Below are positions 1,039 through 13,629 of a DNA stretch of 51,157 nucleotides, piece after piece (position 1 is the first letter of the stretch; the number at the start of each line of letters is the position of its first letter). Location of the stretch: the IMG/VR virus record IMGVR_UViG_2925877141_000001; one strand, written 5' to 3'. A model generated the notes under the pieces. It ran no database searches. It worked only from the letters and a program-made list of their open reading frames with translations, and was not told the origin of the DNA. Source of the DNA: a virus. Taxonomy: Duplodnaviria > Heunggongvirae > Uroviricota > Caudoviricetes. The position numbers were made by a program, and so were the translations under genes.

Positions 1039-2595
1039 ATGGCTAGCGAAAATGACAAAAATCATAGAGTTAGGGTCGCGCAGTACTTGAGGATGTCTAC
1101 CGACCATCAGCAATATTCTTTACATAATCAGTCCGAATATATCAAAGATTATGCTGAAAAGAACAATATGGAAATCGCTTATACCTACGATGATGCAGGT
1201 AAGAGCGGAGTCAGTATCGTAGGCAGGCATTCTTTGCAGCAGTTACTTAGCGATGTAGAACAAAAGAAAATAGATATACAGGCTGTATTATTTTATGATG
1301 TGAGCCGTTTTGGTCGTTTTCAAAATAGTGATGAAGCGGCATATTATTCCTTTCTATTTGAGAGAAATGGTGTAGATCTTATATATTGTTCCGAACCTAT
1401 ACCCACTAAAGATTTCCCTTTAGAGTCCTCTGTTATACTGAATATAAAAAGATCTAGTGCTGCATATCACAGCAGGAATTTATCTGAAAAGGTATTTATA
1501 GGGCAAGTAAATTTAATAAAGCTTGGTTATCATCAAGGCGGTATGGCTGGTTATGGGCTGAGACGTCTTTTAGTAGACGAAAATGGCATAGCTAAAGAAA
1601 TATTGAGTTTCCGCAAAAGAAAGAGTATTCAAACAGATAGGGTAATATTAATTCCGGGACCAAAAAATGAAATAAAAATTGTAAATAGAATATATGATCT
1701 CTTTATAGATAATAACGTCCCAGAATTCATTATTGCTGAGAGATTAAATGAACAGAACATACCTGCAGAAAATGGAACATTATGGACTCGTGCAAAAATA
1801 CATCAAATTTTGACAAATGAAAAATATATTGGAAACAACATATATAACAAAACCTCATCTAAATTAAAAAGTAGGCTTGTAAAAAACCCCAAACATGAAT
1901 GGGTTAGATGTGACAAGGCATATAAACCTATTATTTCAAAGAAAAAATACAATAAAGCTCAAGAAATAATTCAGCTCCGATCCATTCATTTGACTAATGA
2001 AGATCTATTAGAAAAACTAAAACAAAAATTAGAATCTAATGGAAAACTATCAGGCTTTATCATTGATGAAGATGATACAGGCCCTTCATCTTCTGTTTAT
2101 AGAACCCGATTTGGTGGTCTTTTAAGAGCATATACTTTGATTGGTTATAAGCCAGAACATGATTACAGCTATCTCAAAATAAATGAAGCACTAAGATCAT
2201 TTCACTCAGAGATAATTGAGGATTTTAAGGGTGAAATTTTAAAAAGTAACTGTCATATAGACGAGTATAAATATGCCCCAATGCTTTACATCAATGATGA
2301 GTTTTTAATTTCCGTCCTTGTTACTAAATGCATACATATGAAATCAGGTAAACTTAGATGGAAAGTCCGGTTTGATAACTCACAGAAAGCAGACATAACA
2401 ATTGTTATACGAATGAATTCACAAAATATTTCACCTCTTGATTTTTATATCATACCAAAGATTGAAAACGAATATAATAAAATGTGCATGACGGAAACAA
2501 ACAACATTCGATTAGATCTCTATAGATTTGATAATCTTGATAAACTTCTACAAATTATTACTCGCATGAAAGTGAGGGAACTATATGCTGCCTGA
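1039..2595 (+). CDS. Large serine recombinase-like protein (resolvase catalytic domain + recombinase domain)
   Basis: N-terminal YLRMSTDHQ motif (serine recombinase nucleophile context) and a later recombinase-type segment (HQILTNEKYIGNNIYNK); no clear Cys-rich zinc ribbon; very AT-rich; GAGG upstream of ATG. Confidence 0.7.
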   Translation: MASENDKNHRVRVAQYLRMSTDHQQYSLHNQSEYIKDYAEKNNMEIAYTYDDAGKSGVSIVGRHSLQQLLSDVEQKKIDIQAVLFYDVSRFGRFQNSDEAAYYSFLFERNGVDLIYCSEPIPTKDFPLESSVILNIKRSSAAYHSRNLSEKVFIGQVNLIKLGYHQGGMAGYGLRRLLVDENGIAKEILSFRKRKSIQTDRVILIPGPKNEIKIVNRIYDLFIDNNVPEFIIAERLNEQNIPAENGTLWTRAKIHQILTNEKYIGNNIYNKTSSKLKSRLVKNPKHEWVRCDKAYKPIISKKKYNKAQEIIQLRSIHLTNEDLLEKLKQKLESNGKLSGFIIDEDDTGPSSSVYRTRFGGLLRAYTLIGYKPEHDYSYLKINEALRSFHSEIIEDFKGEILKSNCHIDEYKYAPMLYINDEFLISVLVTKCIHMKSGKLRWKVRFDNSQKADITIVIRMNSQNISPLDFYIIPKIENEYNKMCMTETNNIRLDLYRFDNLDKLLQIITRMKVRELYAA

Positions 2596-3481
2596 AAAAA
2601 ATGAATTCCCAATAATTCAAATTGAGATTGCAAAAATAAAATTTCTTAACCCACGAACAAGAAATAAGTTAGTGCATGAAGAAATAAAGGAAAGCATAAA
2701 AAAAAGAGGATTAAGCAAGCCTATAAGCGTAAGAGCTATTGATGAAGGCGATTTCAAATATGCTTTAATTTGTGGTCAAGGGAGAATAGAGGCTCTCGTT
2801 GCATTAGGTGAAACTATTATTCCAGCAATTATAAGAGATGTATCAGAAGAAGATGCTTACGTTATGAGTTTAGTTGAAAACATTGCAAGGAGAAGACCAC
2901 GTTCTAATGAGTTATTACAGGTGATTAAAGACATGAAAATCAGAGGACTTTCAGACTCCGAAATAAGTGAGATTACTGGATATTCATCGAACTGGGTGAG
3001 CAGTATTAATATGCTACTTGATAAGGGAGAGCATAAACTTCTCTCAGCAGTCGAACGGGGTAATTTGCCTCTGTATCTCGCAGTGCAATTTGCAAGATGT
3101 GAAACTGAGGAAGCACAAGATATTCTTACCGAAGCATATGATAAAAAATTAATAAAAAGTCGGGACATTATAAAGATAAAACACATTCTAAATCAAAGAA
3201 CAGTTGGGAATAAAGGTGCAAAAGCAGCCGGATTTTATTATCACAAACCATCAAAAAGGATGACTGCAGAGGAGTTGATTGAGCTTTATGAAAATAGTAT
3301 CGCTGAACATAAATCTGTTTATAACAACTCAAAATTCATAAAAACCAACCTACTAATAGTAAATGAGATTTTTAACATCATAATGATGAATAAAAGCTTT
3401 CAACATATACTTGAACAAGAGAATCTTTCAGAACTACCATCTCAGATATTAACCCCAGTAAACAAAGAGGTATTAAAATGA
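2585..3481 (+). CDS. ParB/Srx-fold N-terminal domain + HTH protein (ParB-like 1)
   Basis: Overlaps upstream gene by 11 bp; ParB-box-like GQGRIEAL motif followed by HTH-like segment (GLSDSEISEITGYSSNWVSSI). Confidence 0.6.
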   Translation: MLPEKNEFPIIQIEIAKIKFLNPRTRNKLVHEEIKESIKKRGLSKPISVRAIDEGDFKYALICGQGRIEALVALGETIIPAIIRDVSEEDAYVMSLVENIARRRPRSNELLQVIKDMKIRGLSDSEISEITGYSSNWVSSINMLLDKGEHKLLSAVERGNLPLYLAVQFARCETEEAQDILTEAYDKKLIKSRDIIKIKHILNQRTVGNKGAKAAGFYYHKPSKRMTAEELIELYENSIAEHKSVYNNSKFIKTNLLIVNEIFNIIMMNKSFQHILEQENLSELPSQILTPVNKEVLK

Positions 3482-4374
3482 TTCAGATACGTTTTGGCGA
3501 TAATTTTATTTACCTGGAAACTAATAAGTTAATTCCATCTAAGGAATTATTAGAAAACGTAAAGCGAAGCCATAAATATCATCAAATAGTTACCTCTATC
3601 GAAAGCTTAGGTATTATTGAACCAATAATAGTATTCTATGACAAAGATAAAGATGTCACTAAGATACTTGATGGCCATTTAAGGGTTGAGGCTTTAAAAG
3701 ACTTAGGTATAGAAAAAGCTCCATGTATACTTTCGAGCATAGATGATGCTTTCACTCCTAACAAACAAGTGAATCATATAAATGTAGTTGAAGAACATAG
3801 AATGATAATTAAGTCTCTGGCAAAAGTATCAATTGAAAAACTTAGTGCTGCTTTGGGCATATCTGTTGATGCCATAAAAGATAAAGCGAATGTGATGAAC
3901 GGCATAGATCCAAGTGTAATTGCGAAACTTTCTGATAAACCTATACCTAAGGCTACATTTGACATTTTGAGGAAAATGAAGCCAATTCGCCAAATTGAAG
4001 CAGTCGGTACAATGATTAATTTTGATAATTATAGTAAAAAATTTGCAATGAGCATCTTGGATGCAACACCGGCATCGATGATAGTAAATAAAGGGAAAAA
4101 CACTCCCTATAAAAAGGACATAAAAAAAACCATACTTCGTCTGGAACAAGAAATGGCAACAACTTCGGAAGAAACGAAAAAGCTTCAAACCGAGTATGGT
4201 TCAGATATGTTGAAATTCGTTATAATCCAGTCATATATTAATAAATTACTTGGCAATTCTAAAGTTCTTCATTGGTTCTTAGAAAACGAGGTTGATTATC
4301 TTAATGAGTTAAAAAGAATTTCTAGAATAAATTCTTTGGATGATAAGACTCTTACTGAAAACAGCAAGTCATAG
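3478..4374 (+). CDS. ParB/Srx-fold N-terminal domain + HTH protein (ParB-like 2, paralog)
   Basis: ATGA stop/start overlap with upstream gene; DGHLRVEALKDLG motif and HTH-like segment (SIEKLSAALGISVDAIK). Confidence 0.6.
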   Translation: MIQIRFGDNFIYLETNKLIPSKELLENVKRSHKYHQIVTSIESLGIIEPIIVFYDKDKDVTKILDGHLRVEALKDLGIEKAPCILSSIDDAFTPNKQVNHINVVEEHRMIIKSLAKVSIEKLSAALGISVDAIKDKANVMNGIDPSVIAKLSDKPIPKATFDILRKMKPIRQIEAVGTMINFDNYSKKFAMSILDATPASMIVNKGKNTPYKKDIKKTILRLEQEMATTSEETKKLQTEYGSDMLKFVIIQSYINKLLGNSKVLHWFLENEVDYLNELKRISRINSLDDKTLTENSKS

Positions 4375-4688: not shown

Positions 4689-5528
4689 CTATATTTCCAG
4701 ACATCTGTTATCACTTAACCCATTACAAGCCCGCTGCCGCAGATATTCCCGTGGCGAGCGATAACCCAGCGCACTATGCGGATGCCATTCGTTATAATGC
4801 TCGAACGCCTCTGCAAGGTTCTTTGCTGCCGTTAACCCGTCTGGTTTGGGCATGATACTGATGTAGTCACGCTTTATCGTTTTCACGAAGCTCTCTGCTA
4901 TTCCGTTACTCTCCGGACTCCGCACCGCCGTGTTCTTCGGTTCAAGTCCCAACATCCGGGCGAACTGGCGTGTTTCATTAGCCCGGTAGCATGAACCATT
5001 ATCCGTCAGCCACTCCACTGGAGACGACGGAAGATCGTTGCCGAAGCGGCGTTCCACCGCTCCCAGCATGACGTCCTGTACTGTTTCACTGTTGAAGCCG
5101 CCGGTAGTGACCGCCCAGTGCAGTGCCTCACGATCACAGCAGTCCAGCGCGAACGTGACACGCAGTCTCTCTCCGTTATCACAGCAGAACTCGAACCCGT
5201 CAGAGCACCATCGCTGATTGCTTTCTTTCACGGCCACTCTGCCTGTATGTGCCCGTTTCGATGGCGGTACAGCAGGTTTTCGCTCAAGCAACAGCGCATT
5301 CTGGCGCATGATCCGGTAAACACGTTTGGCATTGATCGCAGGCATACCATCAAGTTCTGCCTGTCTGCGAAGCAGCGCCCATACCCGACGATAACCATAC
5401 GTGGGCAGCTCTCCGATAACATGGTGTATACGGAGAAGCACATCCGTATCATCAGTGTGACGACTGCGGCGGCCATCCATCCAGTCATCGGTTCGTCTGA
5501 GAATGACGTGCAACTGCGCACGCGACAC
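4689..5528 (-). CDS. insD: IS2 orfB (InsD) reading frame, N-terminus apparently disrupted
   Basis: Translation matches InsD from ...[15 protein letters not shown] to ...NRCLEI; canonical upstream start ([13 protein letters not shown]) is not in frame here. Confidence 0.7.
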
Positions 5529-5916
5529 CCGGAGACAACGGCTGACTAAGCTTACTCCCCATCCCGGGCAATAAGGGCGCGTGCGCTATCCACTTTTTTG
5601 CCCGTCCATATTCAACGGCTTCTTTGAGGAGTTCATTTTCCATCGTTTTCTTGCCGAGCAGGCGCTGGAGTTCTTTAATCTGCTTCATGGCGGCAGCAAG
5701 TTCAGAGGCAGGAACAACCTGTTCTCCGGCGGCGACAGCAGTAAGACTTCCTTCCTGGTATTGCTTACGCCAGAGAAATAACTGGCTGGCTGCTACACCA
5801 TGTTGCCGGGCAACGAGGGAGACCGTCATCCCCGGTTCAAAGCTCTGCTGAACAATTGCGATCTTTTCCTGTGTGGTACGCCGTCTGCGTTTCTCCGGCC
5901 CTAAGACATCAATCAT
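5485..5916 (-). CDS. insC: IS2 orfA (InsC), C-terminally extended relative to canonical 121 aa
   Basis: Starts [26 protein letters not shown]; ends ...[11 protein letters not shown]... instead of the remembered ...LLPGDGE stop, suggesting a 1-bp deletion in a G-run. Confidence 0.7.
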
Positions 5917-6007
5917 CTGTTCTCCAATGACTAGTCTAAAAACTAGTATTAAGACTATCACTTATTTAAGTGATATTGGTTGTCTGGAGATTCAGGGGGC
6001 CAGTCTA

Positions 6008-6161
6008 ACAGACTAGCAGTGCGTTCCCTGCCGATGATGTCCTGACCAGTTTTTTCAGTCCGGACCTCCTGCCACGATTTTACGTTGAAGTGGTAACCCT
6101 GAGCACGCAGTTCTTCAGTCAGGCGTGGTGCACCGTAACGCTGTTATTGCTGGGTAAGATC
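6008..6161 (-). mobile_element. IS3-family remnant (internal orfB fragment joined to a terminal inverted repeat), interrupted by IS2
   Basis: 6072-6150 is similar to IS3 interior 7426-7497; 6145-6161 ATTGCTGGGTAAGATCA equals the IS3 terminus seen at 8025-8041. Confidence 0.5.
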
Positions 6162-6412
6162 AAAAAACTTTCAGGCAGCTAAGGAAAGTTGAACCAGACA
6201 TTAGATGAAATATTTCAACCAATTACAGCACCAATTCAGTCACTGCCAGCCCACCAAATAAATCAAGGGGTTACATGAAAACGTAGCCCCTTTTTCTTTG
6301 GTAGTGACACTAAAATGGATGTAGTGTGAAGAATAATCCCGTTTACTCAATCAATAATACATATTGTTTCAATCTACGTTATTATCTCTTTGTAAAAATT
6401 GCCATTTATTAA

Positions 6413-6783
6413 TCATTGAAAACTGCTTTTAGAACTTGATACAACGGGACTAGTCACAACAGGACTATTCTCAACGGGATCATCCTCAGAGGAACTATCA
6501 TCAAAGTCATCATCCATAAATAAAATATCATCGAATGGTGCCACGCCCGTGATGAGTTTTATTTTATTATTACGATCAGTCAATACTCCACTTAAACCGT
6601 TTTCGCTCACAGGTTTTAATGATTTTTCATTACTCTTGTTGTAAGCAGGCGCATTAAAAATACACGGAGTATCAACATCAAACAATGACGTTCCCCAGTT
6701 CACATATTGAATATCATAGTTACTGAAGTTCTGTCCAGAAAAGAAGCACCCCTTAAAATCCAATCCACGTAAATTATATAAAC
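6413..6783 (-). pseudogene. 3' fragment of an unknown gene (pentapeptide-repeat-like N-terminal part, acidic Ser/Asp-rich tail), 5' end removed by IS3
   Basis: ORF runs without a start into the IS3 terminus at 6784; AT-rich. Confidence 0.4.
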
Positions 6784-6813
6784 TGATCCTACCCACGTAA
6801 TATGGACACAGGC

Positions 6814-7680
6814 CTAAGCGAGGTTCTTGTTTTCAAATTGTTCCGGACTGAGGCCGCCACACCAACTGTGCCGCCGCCACCGATTGTAATCACATTCGAT
6901 ATAATTAAACACCGTTGCCCGCATTATTTCCCGGCTGATAAAGTGTTCTCCATGGATACATTCCACTTTCAGCGAATGAAAGAAGCTTTCCACGCAGGCA
7001 TTATCGTAGCAGCAACCTTTTGCGCTCATACTTCCACGCAGATTATGCCGCTTCAGTTGCGCCTGATAATCTGCTGAACAGTACTGGCCTCCACGGTCCG
7101 TGTGAACGATAACGTTCCGGGGCCTCTTACGCCGCCACAGCGCCATCTGCAGGGCATCGCAGGCCAGTTGCGCCGTCATGCGTGGCGACATTGACCAGCC
7201 AATAACGGCACGTGACCACAGGTCAATGACCACTGCCAGATACAGCCAGCCTTCATCTGTACGTAAGTACGTGATGTCTCCTGCCCACTTCTGGTTCGGG
7301 CCACTGGCGTAAAAATCCTGCTCCAACAGATTTTCTGACACAGGCAGGCCGTGTGCGCGGTAGCTGACCGGGCTGAACTTCCGGGAGGCCTTTGCCCTCA
7401 GTCCCTGACGGCGCAGGCTTGCCGCCACGGTTTTTACGTTAAAGGGGTAACCCTGAGCACGCAGTTCATCCGTCAGGCGTGGGGCACCGTAACGCTGTTT
7501 TGACCGGGTAAAAGCCGCGAGGACAACGCTGTCGCAGTGTTGGCGGAACTGCTGACGCGTGCTTATCCTTGTCCGCCGCTGACACCACGTATACCAGCCG
7601 CTGCGGGCCACCCGGAGCACGCGGCACATTGCTTTGATGCTGAACTCAGCCTGATGTTTTTCAATAAAGACATACTTCAT
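6814..7680 (-). CDS. insF: IS3 transposase orfB (InsF)
   Basis: 288-aa translation [22 protein letters not shown]...EQFENKNLA recognised as IS3 InsF with DDE region. Confidence 0.85.
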
Positions 7681-7976
7681 TTCAGGCGCTTCGCGAAGTA
7701 TGTCGCGGCCTTTTGGAGGATAGCCAGCTCTTCATCCCGTTCTGCCAGCTGGCGTTTGAGACGTGCAATCTCGGTAGACATCTCCAGTTCACGTTCAGAA
7801 GACGTCTGCTGATTTTGCTGTTTACTGCGCCAGTTGTAGAGTTGTGATTCATACAGGCTGAGTTCACGGGCTGCGGCAGTAACACCGATGCGTTCAGCAA
7901 GCTTCAGGGCTTCACTGCGAAATTCAGGCGAATGCTGTTTACGGGGTTTTTTACTGGTTGATACTGTTTTTGTCAT
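7677..7976 (-). CDS. insE: IS3 transposase orfA (InsE)
   Basis: [31 protein letters not shown]... recognised as IS3 InsE; overlaps orfB in the usual frameshift arrangement. Confidence 0.8.
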
Positions 7977-8041
7977 GTGAGTCACCTCTGACTGAGAGTT
8001 TACTCACTTAGCCGCGTGTCCACTATTGCTGGGTAAGATCA

Positions 8042-8237
8042 AGGTTCCTAAGCTCACCTTAGTTCGCTTTTTGGTCACAGGCACTGCATATCTGAAATAC
8101 CAATTTTTCTTCCCTCCCTTCGCCAGGGGAGCGATTCGCAACAGCAAACCATCGCCGTCAAAAAGGTTAACCTCTTTTTCGGCAGGTTTGGTGCTTTTGA
8201 TTTCAGTGTCAGTGAGCTTCTTAGCGATTTTGGCCAT
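8042..8237 (-). pseudogene. P4/CP4-57-type integrase N-terminal fragment (~65 aa) truncated by IS3
   Basis: MAKIAKKLTDTEIKSTKPAEKEVNLFDGDGLLLRIAPLAKGGKKNWYFRYAVPVTKKRTK looks like an integrase arm-binding N-terminus; reading frame runs into the IS3 end at 8041; N-terminus lies ~170 bp from the att repeat. Confidence 0.65.
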
Positions 8238-8403
8238 GTTTGGGACCCTCGATTTTAGGACCCATCTTCGTGGGTCCCATTCAGGGTGCCATAACTCGTA
8301 GTTCTCAGCAATTCTCACTAGACTACAATAGACGTAAAAAAGCCCGCAGAGCTTGTGCTGTGCGGGCTTAGTAGACTTTACTGAACTTCAGTACATCAAT
8401 ATT

Positions 8404-8430
8404 TGGTGGAGCTGGCGGGAGTTGAACCCG
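8404..8430. repeat. 27-bp direct repeat of the ssrA 3' end (att core; prophage attL)
   Basis: TGGTGGAGCTGGCGGGAGTTGAACCCG is identical to 50756-50782 at the 3' end of ssrA. Confidence 0.85.
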
Positions 8431-8508: not shown

Positions 8509-9408
8509 TTATGTCTGGATGTGGTCGTCAACACATCCTCTTTTAAATACAGGCGCTTTTACCTTAGTTGGATCATCTGTTTTAAAGATTTTCAATCGTT
8601 CACTGAAGAACATTACCTCAGATCCTTTGTACCGATCTTGAGCACTGTAGTTTATTCCATATACTAATGAGGATGTCTTATACATAGCTTGGATCTCAGG
8701 AGTGTTATCGTAAGAAACAATCCAAGGCGTTTTAATATTATTCTGTACGACTTTTGCAACCCTAACATGATCATCATGATCATAATGGTTGATATATAAG
8801 CCTTTACCTTTTATGTAATAAGGTGGATCCAAATAGGTTAATGAGTTTTGTGGCAATTGAATAACTATTTTTTTTATGAAATCAATTGCATCCATGTTAT
8901 ATAAATCTATTCTGTGACGATTTTCTGATATTCTATGGATTCGAGAAATCAAATCACTCTTATTATAGCGAGCGTCAAGCTTCCATTTCCCTTCTTGATT
9001 TTTACCGCCAATTACACCACCTTTTAATATTCCAGAACGATTTGTTCTATTGAGAAAAAAGGTTGAGAAACCAATTGTTAAAAGATCATGGTCTTTAGGA
9101 TTATTAATTATATCTTTCTGCCTAAACCATTCATCCATTGTAACTTCTGTTCTTTCAACTAAAGAACATAATTGATCTGCATGATTTAATACACTGTGCC
9201 AAAAAGCATAAACAGAAATATTAATATCATTAAGGATGATTTTTTCAGCTGCATTTAGATGTAACAGTTTCAATGCTAAACCAGCACCCCCAGCATATGG
9301 TTCGGCATAATGTATAGGCGAAAGATTATTTTCTTCAATAATCCGAAGCATGAAATTTGCAAGCTTGCCTTTACCGCCAGGATAGCGAAGTGGGGTGTTA
9401 AAACGCAT
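8509..9408 (-). CDS. Dam-family (D12 class) N6-adenine DNA methyltransferase
   Basis: Motifs LRYPGGK, EPYAGGAG and DPPY in the translation; ATG at 9408; AT-rich. Confidence 0.8.
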   Translation of the reverse strand: MRFNTPLRYPGGKGKLANFMLRIIEENNLSPIHYAEPYAGGAGLALKLLHLNAAEKIILNDINISVYAFWHSVLNHADQLCSLVERTEVTMDEWFRQKDIINNPKDHDLLTIGFSTFFLNRTNRSGILKGGVIGGKNQEGKWKLDARYNKSDLISRIHRISENRHRIDLYNMDAIDFIKKIVIQLPQNSLTYLDPPYYIKGKGLYINHYDHDDHVRVAKVVQNNIKTPWIVSYDNTPEIQAMYKTSSLVYGINYSAQDRYKGSEVMFFSERLKIFKTDDPTKVKAPVFKRGCVDDHIQT

Positions 9409-9442
9409 ATGATACCTCTAAATGTCAGATCTAAAGTATATC

Positions 9443-9477
9443 AAAAAAAGGGCTTTATGGCCATCACATAAAACCCC
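9443..9477 (-). terminator. Possible intrinsic terminator between ATPase and methyltransferase genes
   Basis: Minus-strand hairpin GGGTTTTA...TAAAGCCC followed by a run of 7 T. Confidence 0.4.
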
Positions 9478-9487
9478 TTTTAATCAA

Positions 9488-11221
9488 TTAGTTATCTGAC
9501 AGATATGATGAGATGGTAGCAGAATCGACACCATGTCCACTTATCATAATAACTTTAAGACTCTTTATTAGTTCATTCTTGAAGCTATCCGATTGCACAG
9601 GATTTTTCTCGACCCAATATCGATATGGGTTATCTTTAACTCGTCCTTTGACTTGGTCCTGAAATTGAGTCGTATGTGCAAAATCTTTAAACAGTTTTCT
9701 CACTCTCCCGCCATGATTTTTGTTAACTTTTTTATAATTATCTATAAGGATTTTTAAATCAATCGGAGCGTTACCAATCTTTAGCGTTGTAATTATGTCT
9801 TTAGCTGTTTTCATAAAAACAGATTTTGTAAATTTATTTTTATTTTCCCAATATGCATCATCAGGTGGTAAATTATATAAAAACTCAAAAATCATTTGAT
9901 CTGGAGGTAAGGTGCTTGGAAGCAAACATAAGTTTTTTTCTTTTTTGGCTTTTTTTGCATTAGCACTGTTGTCGTGAACAACATCACCGTCTAAGACGAT
10001 CAAGCTTTTAGCTGTAAATTCTGGTATTTTTCTTGCCATTAAGTCAAGCATGGCAGAGCAGCTAATATTTATATTCCCTAATGGATTTAATATTTTATTT
10101 ATTTTTCGATCTGTTATCAATTGTTTGAAAAAGTCGAAACCTTCTTTGTCTTCAAAATATACATTTGCTTTTGGAAGACAAATGTCATCATTAATTTTTA
10201 CAGTTTCAACATGTAAATCAGCGTGGATATCTGTCCATGAAAGATTATTCTTTGTTTTAATATCTCCATATGTGTCTGTAAGATATATTGTTTTAAAGCT
10301 ATCACTATCTTGTTTTGAACGATTATAGATATCCTCTATTATTAATGGAGAGTGCGAGGTCATGATTATTTGCAGATCGTATTGTTTTGCTGCTTTAGTT
10401 AGAATATTAATTAACTCTAACTGTGCAGCAGGGAAAAGACCTGCATCGGCTTCATCAATTAACAATATTCCGCCATGATAATCAGAATAAGTTTCCTTCA
10501 ATCTTTTAAATGAAAAAATTGCTTGGATTAATTGTCCAACATTATCTTCACCAACAGATACTGATTGGTGATCATAATTGTCACCATGGACAACCATTGA
10601 ATCGATAATACCTTTTGTTGCTGTTACTGAGCTTCCATTGTTTTTTAGTAAGAGTTGGTTACTCATCATTCTGATTTCATCAGAATTTTCATTGATGTAC
10701 TGAACATCCCGTGTTGAGTAATTAGTCCTTAATGTAATAGGAAGAAGTCGTGCTAAGCTTAAAAAAATAACAGGATGAGTAACGTTTCTACTTTGGTTTT
10801 TTTCCGGTATTGAATCATTTCCCCTGACTACAGGCCTTGATTTATCTCTGTCACTGTAGCTGTATAAACCTAATGTTAGTTTTTCAAGATGTTTGTTCGA
10901 TGCACCATCATAGACACTAATTTTGACGTCCATTGAACCAGGAACATCAAATTGTTCTGAAAGCCTAAAATGTTCGCTGAAAGCTGACTTGAAGCTGCCA
11001 TTTGTTAATGTTTTATATTGTGTTAAATCAGTCTCAGGTTTTTTGGTAAAGTCCTTTGTAAAGCTAAATATTTGGGCGATAATGCCAAGAATTGTGGATT
11101 TAGATGTGCCATTTTTACCACAAATAACAGTTAGGCGAGAACCAAACTCGATGTTTATATTTTTCAGTCCGCGAAACTTCACAACATTTATATTTTTTAG
11201 TTTGGTAATTTGATTTGCCAT
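9488..11221 (-). CDS. ABC-type (AAA_15/OLD-like) ATPase with putative C-terminal Toprim-like nuclease region
   Basis: Walker A GKNGTSKST, Walker B LLIDEADAGLF, H-loop-like TSHSP; C-terminal FEDKEG and LIVLDGD segments resemble Toprim Glu and DxD motifs (unverified); alternative ATG at 11272. Confidence 0.65.
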   Translation of the reverse strand: MANQITKLKNINVVKFRGLKNINIEFGSRLTVICGKNGTSKSTILGIIAQIFSFTKDFTKKPETDLTQYKTLTNGSFKSAFSEHFRLSEQFDVPGSMDVKISVYDGASNKHLEKLTLGLYSYSDRDKSRPVVRGNDSIPEKNQSRNVTHPVIFLSLARLLPITLRTNYSTRDVQYINENSDEIRMMSNQLLLKNNGSSVTATKGIIDSMVVHGDNYDHQSVSVGEDNVGQLIQAIFSFKRLKETYSDYHGGILLIDEADAGLFPAAQLELINILTKAAKQYDLQIIMTSHSPLIIEDIYNRSKQDSDSFKTIYLTDTYGDIKTKNNLSWTDIHADLHVETVKINDDICLPKANVYFEDKEGFDFFKQLITDRKINKILNPLGNINISCSAMLDLMARKIPEFTAKSLIVLDGDVVHDNSANAKKAKKEKNLCLLPSTLPPDQMIFEFLYNLPPDDAYWENKNKFTKSVFMKTAKDIITTLKIGNAPIDLKILIDNYKKVNKNHGGRVRKLFKDFAHTTQFQDQVKGRVKDNPYRYWVEKNPVQSDSFKNELIKSLKVIMISGHGVDSATISSYLSDN

Positions 11222-11237
11222 GTTTGTATCTTGCTCC

Positions 11238-11262
11238 GTAAAATGGCCACAAATTGTGGCCA
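11238..11262 (-). terminator. Hairpin immediately downstream of int (tI/sib-like position)
   Basis: Palindrome TGGCCACA-AAT-TGTGGCCA at 11244-11262 followed on the minus strand by TTTT. Confidence 0.45.
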
Positions 11263-11279
11263 ATAGTTTCATGCTTGGA

Positions 11280-12446
11280 TTATATTGTTATCTTCTTCAA
11301 GCTTGTTTGTCCATCATATTCCTTCAGATATGAGCCATAGTGCCTGAAAAGCATCTCCGGTCCTTTATGCCCCATTTGAGCTGCAAGCCAAAACAGGTTT
11401 GCTCCCCGGCTGATATGGCGGGTGGCGAATGTATGCCTAGTTTGATATGGATTTCTGTAACGAATACCTGCTTTTCGCAATGTTGGCACCCATGCTTTTT
11501 TTCTGATTGCATCAGCACTTGCCCATGGCTTATTGGTCTTTGGATCTTCAAAGACAGTAGCATCCTTCATGAATGTAAATGGCTTCTGGTTTATCAACGC
11601 CAACATTGCTTCTTCAGTCAGTTCAACTTTACGGGTACCGGCTTTTGTCTTTGTTCCTTTGATAACTCCGACAACACTTGCGCTCTGAACATGGGCTGTT
11701 TTTCCAACAAAGTCGATATCATGCCATCGTAGGGCACATAATTCAGAACTACGCAGGCCTGTATGTATGGCGAACCGGAACAGATTTTCCCATTGTTTGT
11801 TTCCGGCTGCTGCTAGTAATGCATCAACTTCTGCTGGTGATAGCGGATCAACCACATAGCTGCTTTCTGCTTCTGACTTATCACTTTGGTAGCGCGAAGC
11901 TGTTACTAACGATACGGGGTTAATTTGAAATACCCCATCGGTCACGGCTTCATCAAGTGCTGACCGTAGGAAAGATAACTGGTTGCGAATGGTTTTTAAG
12001 GTTGTTTTCTGGCTTTGAATCCACGCTTTCAGGGTTGCTGGTGTTAATTCACTTGCAGGGCAAATGTGAAGTGAGGCTAACGCACTACGGCATTTTTTAT
12101 AGCCACCAATCGTAGAGGGTGAAAGTTTTCTTGTTTCGCAGATTTCAAGATATTCGTCCAGGTACATCTTTACCGTTTTGCCTGCAGCAGCATTACCAAA
12201 AATTTTCAAACGAGCAGAACGGGGAAAATATTCTGCATAAATGAATGTTCCCCTTTCGATCTTATTATGGATTTCGCCGAGTGTACGCTCGGCGTATTTA
12301 ATGTTCTTTGGTGTTACTTCCAGATTGGAAAGCGGCTCACGACATCTAACTCCTTTGTAGGTGAAAGTTATATTGATCGTTTCTCCCTGGCGGTGTTTCC
12401 TGATTGTTACGCCGCGCGGTAGTTTGAGCAGTTTTGTCTGGCCCAT
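11280..12446 (-). CDS. int: Phage tyrosine integrase
   Basis: 388-aa ORF with integrase C-terminal catalytic segments (HTGLRSSELCALRW, HTFATRHISRGANLFWLAAQMGH, RHYGSY); overlaps the upstream xis-like ORF. Confidence 0.85.
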   Translation of the reverse strand: MGQTKLLKLPRGVTIRKHRQGETINITFTYKGVRCREPLSNLEVTPKNIKYAERTLGEIHNKIERGTFIYAEYFPRSARLKIFGNAAAGKTVKMYLDEYLEICETRKLSPSTIGGYKKCRSALASLHICPASELTPATLKAWIQSQKTTLKTIRNQLSFLRSALDEAVTDGVFQINPVSLVTASRYQSDKSEAESSYVVDPLSPAEVDALLAAAGNKQWENLFRFAIHTGLRSSELCALRWHDIDFVGKTAHVQSASVVGVIKGTKTKAGTRKVELTEEAMLALINQKPFTFMKDATVFEDPKTNKPWASADAIRKKAWVPTLRKAGIRYRNPYQTRHTFATRHISRGANLFWLAAQMGHKGPEMLFRHYGSYLKEYDGQTSLKKITI

Positions 12447-12654: not shown

Positions 12655-13521
12655 TTAACGAATAGTGTCGTTACTTTGAAGTACAGCAAATGCCATTAAT
12701 ACTTCTAAAGTATATCTTCTATAAAATTTAACAAAACCAACATAGAAAACATAGACGAAGAAAAAGCTAAGCATTATTGAAAGTAAACTATAAAGATAAT
12801 CACTATGAGTATATAATCGATAAATAAAGGTTGGAACTGATACCCAAAATGAAATTATAAAGATTAAACATATGTTTCTGCAAAAACCATATAATGCAAC
12901 ATAGTTTTGAATTTTTGTTTGATGTTGTTTTGAAAACTCATAAACATAATGATATGCCAATCTGAAGAGATCATCATCAAGTCCGTTTTTATCTTGTAAT
13001 AATTGGCGATTTGTTATGAACTTTTTCTCATAACCTTCTTTGATCATTAACCATGTTGTATTAGCTAAATGAAATGGTAGAGATTGAGAATAACATAATT
13101 TTTGTGTTATAAAATCCCATAGTATTATTGGGCATAATACGCATTTGATTATGCGATTCTTTATTTTTGTTTTTTTATCAGCGCTTCTCTCATCGCATGA
13201 TGGGCTACAAATGCTTTCTGAGGTATCTATCAATTTTTTAAATAGATATTTGGAAGGATATCCTAATTCTTTATTCATGTATTTTTCGATAAAAAATGCT
13301 GACGTGATAGAAATAAAATGTCCAGCTATATAAGATATAATAACTATTGAAGCGTAGTTCAAAATGCCAAAGATTTGACTTTGACCTCTGAGCAATTCAC
13401 TTAAGTCAATAACAATATCTAGATCGAATGTCAAACCACAGAAATACATTAATAGGATAAAAAAACCACCTGGTATTAAATATCCAAGAAAGTCATAGAA
13501 TGAGAATGGATTTTGATTCAT
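12655..13521 (-). CDS. Hypothetical multi-pass membrane protein (AT-rich accessory gene)
   Basis: ATG at 13521 with GGAG 7 nt upstream; several hydrophobic segments at both ends; not recognised as a lambda gene. Confidence 0.6.
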   Translation of the reverse strand: MNQNPFSFYDFLGYLIPGGFFILLMYFCGLTFDLDIVIDLSELLRGQSQIFGILNYASIVIISYIAGHFISITSAFFIEKYMNKELGYPSKYLFKKLIDTSESICSPSCDERSADKKTKIKNRIIKCVLCPIILWDFITQKLCYSQSLPFHLANTTWLMIKEGYEKKFITNRQLLQDKNGLDDDLFRLAYHYVYEFSKQHQTKIQNYVALYGFCRNICLIFIISFWVSVPTFIYRLYTHSDYLYSLLSIMLSFFFVYVFYVGFVKFYRRYTLEVLMAFAVLQSNDTIR

Positions 13522-13629
13522 TGTTGCTCTCCAATAATTTTTCAATTTGTAATATAACCTATATCTATATGTTAATAAATTACTTATATGTTCTTTTATG
13601 GCAGAGTTTGAATTCGTACGTGCTGATTT

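Follow-up and report, generated by a model that had tools for sequence, protein, structure and literature searches.

The 51,157-nt stretch of viral DNA analyzed here (IMG/VR record IMGVR_UViG_2925877141_000001; the window) contained an Escherichia coli prophage of about 42.3 kb, which was inserted in ssrA and bounded by att repeats. The first content inside the int-proximal prophage end, before int, was a cassette of two genes. One encoded a DNA methyltransferase of the PD-Lambda-5_B family, and the other encoded an ABC ATPase whose C-terminal part resembled the Toprim nuclease region of OLD-family proteins. The results of our surveys indicated that this pair is a conserved two-gene operon that travels among unrelated mobile elements. 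The sequence comparisons suggested that the cassette was most likely a variant of the PD-lambda-5 antiphage system in which the nuclease partner had been swapped. The features of the cassette, all of which were located on the minus strand, were as follows.

8509..9408, minus strand: D12-class (alpha-type) DNA methyltransferase, PD-Lambda-5_B family, 299 amino acids (aa), presumed self-marking component (Pfam, PADLOC, and motifs)
9488..11221, minus strand: ABC-ATPase-Toprim (OLD-like) protein, 577 aa, presumed ATP-regulated nuclease effector (RefSeq start, homologs, AlphaFold2 [AF2] models, and PDB folds)
10277..11203, minus strand: ABC ATPase domain, residues ~7-315 (Walker A G35-S42, Q50, signature-like S222-N227, Walker B D256-E257, H290)
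9872..10180, minus strand: divergent Toprim core, residues ~348-450 (E357/D358, D411-x-D413, L434-P435, P440-D441-Q442)
9491..9871, minus strand: family-specific C-terminal helical region, residues 451-577 (invariant W458, R508, F511-K512, and N531-P532; all-helical in the models)

An initial annotation of the window had noted two AT-rich minus-strand genes between the att repeat and int, and the corresponding open reading frames (ORFs), 8509..9408 and 9488..11272, were found as described.

Linkage and mobility of the two genes

We surveyed loci anchored on the ATPase, using one genome per species, and recovered 80 loci from Gamma- and Betaproteobacteria, Bacteroidota, Mycobacterium, Listeria, and Acidobacteria. 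The ATPases in these loci were 42-88% identical to the window protein, with a mean pairwise identity of ~52%. A methylase homolog was present in 78 of the 80 loci, and the remaining two loci stopped at a contig edge just after the ATPase gene. In most cases, the methylase gene was located downstream of the ATPase gene, on the same strand and 41-130 nt away, with a usual spacing of 41-45 nt. Divergence of the two proteins was also correlated (r = 0.78, 112 loci). Co-occurrence was a check set beforehand, with its absence to count as refutation of the pairing, and the pair was linked in 78 of 78 informative loci across phyla.

When all flanking ORFs were clustered, the methylase and ATPase families were the only ones common to the loci, and no third conserved gene was detected. 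The next-largest flank cluster (24 loci) was dismissed as a third gene; it represented a shadow ORF that lies within the ATPase gene and antisense to it, and the other clusters were lineage-specific. Separately, large neighbors recurred in the flanks of the non-enterobacterial loci (L002-L081): a protein of ~570 aa in 19 loci, a protein of ~944 aa in 18 loci, and a protein of ~775 aa in 11 loci. These neighbors may point to an island that the loci share or to additional defense genes.

Among 5,426 complete E. coli genomes, the pair was present in 84 (~1.5%, at ≥80% coverage), and the carriers included pathogen lineages such as strain 042 and ST131 strain JJ1886. The methylase gene alone, searched at the same coverage, was also present in 84 complete E. 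coli genomes. The cassette was located in Citrobacter phage phiNP, where it adjoins int at the end of the genome, in a prophage of JJ1886 inserted at a different att site, and in an e14-like prophage between icd and intE, as well as in P4-like satellites, the P2 hotspot, and integrative and conjugative elements (ICEs). The phiNP record annotates the ATPase gene alone; the methylase gene (OR565852.1 43926-44792) is intact (88.6% identity by tblastn) and unannotated. The cassette is widespread and is missed by current annotation; it is not a conceptual surprise.

The methyltransferase and its partner proteins

The methylase had initially been described as a clear Dam-like adenine methyltransferase, and only the class assignment was retained. 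Pfam PF02086 (MethyltransfD12) matched residues 9-249 with an E value of 4.1e-19 and a score well above the gathering cutoff (69.8 versus 22 bits), and the SAM-binding AGGAG motif at residue 39 and the catalytic DPPY motif at residue 194 were both invariant across the methylase family. The PADLOC model PD-Lambda-5_B (PDLC04018) matched at 1.1e-123 and 410 bits, with residues 1-282 aligned to positions 1-283 of the 291-position model, and the PADLOC model MTase_II (PDLC03358) matched at 358 bits. Dam identity was rejected: the NCBIfam dam model TIGR00571 scored 55.2 bits, which was under its cutoff of 114.85 bits, and no structure of Dam, T4 Dam, or DpnM was recovered at an E value of ≤10.

The adenine target also had to be withdrawn from the description. 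The sole solved structure detectably related to the methylase was M.CbeI from Caldicellulosiruptor bescii (PDB 7m6b), which aligned over the full length (E 1e-16 with the single sequence and 1.6e-23 with a profile). M.CbeI is annotated as adenine-specific and was found experimentally to produce N4-methylcytosine at GGCC. Because this nearest solved relative is an N4-cytosine enzyme and Dam-type structures were unmatched, adenine specificity was not established for the cassette enzyme. The mark could be N4-methylcytosine instead of N6-methyladenine, and for the whole PD-Lambda-5_B family, the automatically assigned name "DNA adenine methylase" may be incorrect or lack proof. Both M.CbeI and the cassette methylase have the alpha-class motif order and DPPY. 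However, M.CbeI belongs to a classical Type II GGCC system, its identity to the cassette methylase is low, and the target-recognition segments differ (NRTNRSGILKGGVIGGK in the cassette methylase versus NRITFSGTVDSGGY in M.CbeI). Judging from gene position in JJ1886, the REBASE entry for the cassette methylase is presumably M.Eco1886ORF14565P.

PD-lambda-5, whose methylase belongs to the same family, was recovered in a functional selection from E. coli ECOR7 (RCQ13837.1/RCQ13838.1) and described as "ParB/HEPN, methyltransferase" (Vassallo et al. 2022). Of 10 phages tested, only one escaped its effect, which was strongest against T-even phages, and the authors labeled it "RM+Abi," in which Abi denotes abortive infection (Vassallo et al. 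2022). Cloning PD-lambda-5 needed a host from which the mrr region had been deleted, which implies that its methylase is active (Vassallo et al. 2022). The initial reading of the cassette as a methylation-linked module agreed with this system.

To place the cassette methylase relative to PD-lambda-5, we anchored a second survey on the methylase and examined 80 IMG/VR loci, a sample biased toward methylases near the query. The partner was an ABC-Toprim protein in 54 loci, a ParB/HEPN protein of the PD-Lambda-5_A type in 22 loci, and a split ParB-type protein in two loci; in the last two loci, the methylase gene was at a contig edge without upstream sequence. None of the 80 loci had a classical restriction endonuclease as the partner. 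The initial annotation had held that the cassette was not a classical Type II pair, and this view stood: the sole conserved partner was the ABC-Toprim protein, with no PD-(D/E)XK, HNH, GIY-YIG, or PLD partner.

On the methylase tree, which was a crude unweighted pair group (UPGMA) tree built on identities, the partner type switched at least five times, and methylases with different partners were up to 63% identical. Distant methylase copies in E. coli provided further examples. Two loci (L088, and L089 in the P2 old/tin hotspot) paired the methylase with a genuine PD-Lambda-5_A protein (248-558 bits). A third locus (L090, E. coli E110019, 1889-4449), which is in the P2 old/tin hotspot as well, carried a second type of ABC-Toprim ATPase (565 aa; type also seen in L148-L158), which was 25% identical to the window protein (E 3e-24) and was matched more strongly by the HEC-04 model, which covered its Toprim region. 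The gene order in L090 was reversed, with the methylase gene first. The methylases of L088-L090 were ~50-64% identical to the window enzyme and scored 361-404 bits on PD-Lambda-5_B (410 bits for the window enzyme), and the methylases of genuine PD-lambda-5 loci scored 380-402 bits and were ~50% identical to the cassette methylase. Because the partner type switched at least five times and was never a classical restriction enzyme, the methylase would be a conserved hub with interchangeable NTPase-nuclease effectors, either ParB/HEPN or ABC-Toprim.

The cassette and PD-lambda-5 thus had in common the methylase family, prophage and P2-hotspot locations, and a two-gene arrangement with the effector gene upstream on the same strand, as in the PD-lambda-5-type IMG/VR loci and L089 (the genes of L088 were convergent). 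They differed in the partner, which was an ABC-ATPase-Toprim protein in the cassette and the ParB/HEPN protein PD-Lambda-5_A in PD-lambda-5. PD-Lambda-5_A models were absent from the best 25 PADLOC matches of the cassette ATPase, which were to PtuA, AriA, GajA, HEC-04, and similar models. The PADLOC PD-lambda-5 models recognize only the methylase of the pair. As a side observation, the methylase gene in two IMG/VR loci (L125, 1781-4867, and L126) was preceded by genes for a ParB-like 372-aa protein and an unrelated 338-aa protein, an arrangement that looks like a three-gene version of PD-lambda-5.

The ATPase-Toprim protein and the prophage setting

The size of the ATPase had initially been given as 577-594 aa. 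The longer ORF (9488..11272) begins at an upstream ATG and encodes 594 aa. The true start is most likely the ATG at 11221 (MANQITKL..., with GGAG upstream), which gives 577 aa, because RefSeq and nearly all homologs begin there; the 594-aa form is less likely. More than 1000 full-length homologs were found, and nearly all of them were ~575 aa long.

The ABC ATPase assignment was borne out. Matches to Pfam AAA_15, AAA_21, and SMC_N were confined to residues ~24-315 of the 594-aa ORF, and the PDB sequence matches of this domain were to PtuA, Rad50, OLD, and AriA chains. In a 40-sequence alignment, the Walker A motif GKNGTSKS, the signature-like motif SxGEDN, the Walker B motif LIDE, and the H-loop residue His290 were invariant. 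The same alignment contained an invariant set of Toprim-type residues further downstream, namely N353-x-Y-x-E357-D358, D411-x-D413, L434-P435, and P440-D441-Q442.

The AF2 models had pLDDT (predicted local distance difference test) scores of 88.5 for the full-length protein and 90.6 for residues 330-577. In the models, E357 directly followed a strand at residues 352-356 and D411xD413 directly followed a strand at residues 407-410, within a four-strand beta/alpha core. This predicted placement of strands and residues corresponds to the Toprim arrangement. The best PDB folds for the full-length model were TsOLD (6p74, E 5e-12, 595 columns) and GajA, with alignments of ~600-690 columns.

A Foldseek search with the C-terminal domain alone ranked TsOLD first without reaching significance (E 0.63). 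Sequence searches with the C-terminal part were less direct, and the C-terminal 248 aa had no meaningful match in Pfam, NCBIfam, or the PDB, either as a single sequence or as a 20-sequence profile. The C terminus of the window protein matched no Pfam family at an E value of ≤10, OLD-like_TOPRIM_1 was matched by one of 20 relatives (E 0.32), and DUF2813 was matched by the ATPase at 0.031, which is under the cutoff of that model. A Toprim call from direct searches was impossible, and intermediate sequences were therefore needed. The C termini of eight of 20 family members matched the PADLOC HEC-04 model (≤8e-5). A C-terminal profile searched against 1.84 billion representative proteins reached, via the Toprim core, a second tier of ~500-aa proteins (E 1e-13 to 1e-22), and all 35 sampled second-tier proteins matched the HEC-04 and retron ATPase-Toprim_I-B models. 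One member that was analyzed in detail was matched over residues 3-410 (HEC-04) and 3-483 (ATPase-Toprim_I-B) of 496. When the cassette C-terminal family was aligned with the second tier using hhalign, the probability was 99.9 and the E value was 2e-37, and the E and DxD motifs lined up. Thus, predicted structures and transitive profile homology supported the idea that the ATPase partner is a divergent OLD-like ABC-Toprim nuclease. With regard to the OLD-like C terminus claimed initially, the models, motifs, and hhalign alignment agreed with the claim, and a match to a Pfam Toprim model and a significant domain-only structural match were the parts that did not materialize. The helical region that follows the Toprim core (residues 451-577) yielded a partial hhalign alignment to the HEC-04-like family, and it possibly binds nucleic acid or a partner.

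Two hairpins had been described near the ATPase gene, together with the suggestion that the two cassette genes are separately transcribed.

9441..9481, minus strand: intergenic terminator-like hairpin (9445-9481) plus a T7 run (-25.6 kcal/mol, z -4.15)
11245..11261, minus strand: weak hairpin GGCCACA/TGTGGCC (7 bp) plus TTTT after int (z -1.3, not better than shuffles)

Both hairpins exist, and they differ in strength. None of 200 shuffles folded as well as the intergenic hairpin. The hairpin after int precedes the likely ATPase start; it falls in the extra 5' segment of the 594-aa ORF. A simple terminator scan reported neither hairpin, and direct folding confirmed the intergenic one. A promoter-like sequence (TGGCCA-17-TATACT with an extended -10) at 9463-9435 overlaps the intergenic hairpin. 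Separate transcription is plausible in the E. coli copy, given the hairpin and the promoter-like site, and it is not general because most homologous loci have a 41-45-nt spacer. The putative promoter could drive the methylase apart from the nuclease, which would suit safe establishment in a new host.

The prophage setting of the cassette was defined by the following features.

8404..8430: att repeat, a copy of the ssrA 3' end, with a second copy at 50756-50782 within the tmRNA gene (exact 27-bp repeat, 0 expected by chance)
50756-51118, minus strand: tmRNA gene
11280..12446, minus strand: lambda-type tyrosine integrase, outside the cassette and listed for context (Pfam Arm-DNA-bind_2 1.4e-23, Phage_integrase 1.2e-16)

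A 37-nt stretch at att also matched ssrA-integrating phages. The GC content was 33.1% in the cassette, 44.1% in int, and 50.9% in the remaining prophage.

Several other elements were observed around the prophage. Outside the att repeat is an older, decayed ssrA-linked island, and the prophage is in tandem with that island. IS3-family sequences were noted within 4689-8318: the orfA/orfB pair at 6814-7985 is complete, and additional ORFs lie on the minus strand at 4689-5961. The IS3-family element at 6814-7985 truncates a P4-type (intA-like) integrase, whose N-terminal arm-binding part remains at 8004-8318 and which is uninterrupted in E. coli MY1-8. A plus-strand block at 1039-4374 (31-34% GC) has three genes, the first for a large serine recombinase (518 aa) and the next two for ParB_N/RepB-like proteins of 298 aa each, with a tyrosine-integrase fragment upstream at 1-756. 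This block looks like a separate small mobile element within the ssrA-linked island. Inside the prophage, a minus-strand ORF at 12655-13545 (296 aa, ~30% GC), located between xis-like and yfdR-like genes, encodes a multi-transmembrane-looking protein that matched no Pfam family and only weakly matched the PADLOC Csx27/tm_4 models (3.8e-5). This slot, in which the JJ1886 relative of the prophage has different small ORFs, may represent a second site of variable cargo (moron).

Mode of action and comparison with known systems

We give roughly even odds to the idea that the cassette is a restriction-like, methylation-linked antiphage system in which the ParB/HEPN effector of PD-lambda-5 has been replaced by an OLD-like ABC-ATPase-Toprim nuclease. 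According to this model, the methyltransferase, which in the E. coli copy is possibly transcribed from its own promoter, would modify lysogen and prophage DNA at its target sites. The ABC-ATPase-Toprim protein would engage nucleic acid via ATP binding or hydrolysis, and its Glu357/Asp411/Asp413 metal site would cut unmarked DNA, for instance that of an incoming phage. Self and nonself would be told apart by methylation, possibly with contact between the two proteins. The cassette would then act as a compact restriction-modification system with a noncanonical NTP-dependent nuclease and, as a moron of two genes, would travel among prophage ends, P2/P4 hotspots, and ICEs. Because the methylase was always paired with an NTPase-nuclease and with no other nuclease, the ABC-Toprim protein is the obvious candidate for the restriction component. 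The low GC content and the mobile-element sites are a typical context for defense cargo, which supports this restriction-like model.

A number of points weigh against the restriction-like model. The ATPase shows no recognizable sequence-reading domain. In addition, the ATPase family (42-88% identity) and the methylase core (nearly invariant) are unusually conserved for restriction enzymes. The remaining points come from related systems. PD-lambda-5 protects best against T-even phages, whose DNA is resistant to ordinary restriction-modification (Vassallo et al. 2022), and this preference and the "RM+Abi" label suggest that plain restriction is perhaps an incomplete account. P2 Old and AriB are reported to cleave tRNA and to act by abortive infection, and HEC-04 defends without a methylase (Payne et al. 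2024).

These points bear on a second explanation, a guard-type abortive infection system similar to PrrC or PARIS, which we regard as a serious, though less likely, alternative. Here, the ABC-Toprim protein would be a latent toxin, kept inactive by the methylase or by how the cell is methylated, that may cut tRNA or, without discrimination, host and phage nucleic acid. The toxin would fire upon phage interference, such as an Ocr DNA mimic, a SAM lyase, or a methylase inhibitor, and the methylase would serve as the sensor or antitoxin and not solely for self-marking. The closest functional analogs are Abi effectors: AriA/AriB of PARIS is reported to sense Ocr and to cleave tRNA, and P2 Old is reported to cut the anticodon arms of tRNA. 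The PrrC ABC-ATPase-nuclease sits in a restriction-modification locus, HEC-04 is toxic on induction, and the reading of PD-lambda-5 as "RM+Abi," with its strongest effect on T-even phages, also fits a guard (Vassallo et al. 2022). The high conservation of both proteins is better suited to a protein-protein guard than to diversifying DNA specificities. On the other hand, the surveyed loci had no classical restriction enzyme beside the methylase and hence no "first line" for a guard to back up, DUF4435/AriB and PrrC models were unmatched, and HEC-04 functions without a methylase.

It is improbable that the two genes are independent cargo, that is, an orphan phage methylase with a role in antirestriction or prophage regulation next to an exclusion nuclease, Class-1-like OLD or HEC-04-like, that acts on its own. 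Temperate phages commonly carry orphan D12 methylases, HEC-04 and Class 1 OLD proteins work as single genes, and in the E. coli copy, the genes are set apart by a terminator-like hairpin and a promoter-like site. However, this explanation is difficult to reconcile with the linkage in 78 of 78 loci across phyla (mostly at 41-45 nt), the correlated divergence, the NTPase-nuclease partner of every homologous methylase with upstream sequence, the count of 84 E. coli genomes both for the methylase and for the whole pair, and the movement of the pair as a unit among unrelated mobile elements. Least probable of all is an addiction module that stabilizes the prophage or ICE, with defense as a by-product and with a stable nuclease killing segregants as methylation is diluted after loss; the constant location on mobile elements (beside int/att or in ICE transfer regions), the restriction-modification-like architecture, and the toxicity or restriction of family methylases in naive hosts fit such a module, but cloned PD-lambda-5, whose methylase is of this family, protects strongly and broadly against phages, HEC-04-like nucleases defend directly, and addiction is in any case compatible with the restriction-like model.

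If the pair does defend, PD-lambda-5 would be one face of a phylum-spanning family made up of a single methylase clade and exchangeable NTPase-nuclease effectors. For OLD-type nucleases, on whose triggers and substrates debate continues, the cassette would bring in a link to methylation, and it would provide a genetically simple model for how an ABC-Toprim nuclease spares self DNA. Cassettes of this kind would also be expected to influence the host range in phage therapy and how readily clinical strains can be transformed. A methylome motif that is as yet unassigned may stem from the methylase.

With regard to other known systems, we found no experimental or named description of the dyad in the literature covered, which did not include the ABC ATPase catalog of Krishnan et al. 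2020, where the dyad may be listed. Membership in PARIS, Septu, Gabija, Menshen, and MADS was rejected, as the PtuA, AriA, GajA, NsnB, and MAD3 matches reflected the shared ABC core, and the NCBIfam PtuA and MAD3 matches of the ATPase were far under the curated cutoffs. The Pfam and profile scans also yielded no match of the cassette protein to DUF4435/AriB or PrrC models.

The cassette resembles PrrC-type systems, in which the ABC-ATPase-nuclease PrrC is part of a restriction-modification locus, in that an ABC-ATPase-nuclease is genetically tied to a DNA methyltransferase. The coupling of an NTPase-nuclease to methylation is therefore an established concept. Unlike PrrC-type loci, the cassette is without HsdR, HsdS, and a Type I methylase, and its nuclease is a predicted Toprim domain, not the PrrC anticodon-nuclease domain.

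The ABC-ATPase-Toprim protein HEC-04, encoded by one gene, has been validated in defense, for which it requires Walker A and E319/D375/D377, and is toxic on induction (Payne et al. 2024). The architecture and triad spacing of HEC-04/IbfA resemble those of the cassette protein (E319/D375/D377 versus E357/D411/D413). In contrast to the single-gene, ~500-aa HEC-04 and IbfA (pUA1135) proteins, members of the cassette family are ~575 aa long, have an extra tail, and are paired with a methylase. The match of the window ATPase to the HEC-04 model was weak (57 bits), with the best stretch at residues 25-70 (P-loop). The cassette ATPase family is homologous to HEC-04 yet distinct from it.

The cassette protein shares with the OLD family an ABC ATPase at the N terminus and, at the C terminus, a Toprim region with a Glu and DxD metal site, and TsOLD and GajA were its best full-length structural matches. 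The retron ATPase-Toprim_I-B model of PADLOC also aligned with it through residues 259-452 of the 594-aa ORF. It differs from OLD proteins in that the Pfam and NCBIfam Toprim/OLD models (OLD-like_TOPRIM, DUF4435, and DUF2813) did not reach it and in the family-specific helical tail after the Toprim core. The ATPase insert (residues ~98-155) is predicted to be mostly beta strand and does not clearly correspond to the helical insert for dimerization that has been described in TsOLD.

To our knowledge, the ABC-ATPase-Toprim catalytic fold is not found among restriction endonucleases. We raise, tentatively, the possibility of a new restriction-modification type with an OLD-like ABC-Toprim restriction subunit, in which PD-Lambda-5_B would be a hub, for specificity or self-marking, that is shared by interchangeable NTP-dependent nucleases, similar to Mod/Res of Type III systems, and the cassette protein would represent a fifth OLD class. 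Class 1 consists of P2 Old and TsOLD, which are encoded alone; Class 2 is GajA, which is encoded with a UvrD-like helicase; Class 3 is retron Eco8; and Class 4 is PARIS, with the AriA/AriB split. Clustering of the flanking ORFs identified no helicase or reverse transcriptase family common to the ATPase loci. The conserved neighbor in the cassette is instead a methyltransferase (78 of 78 loci), a context that is foreign to all four OLD classes.

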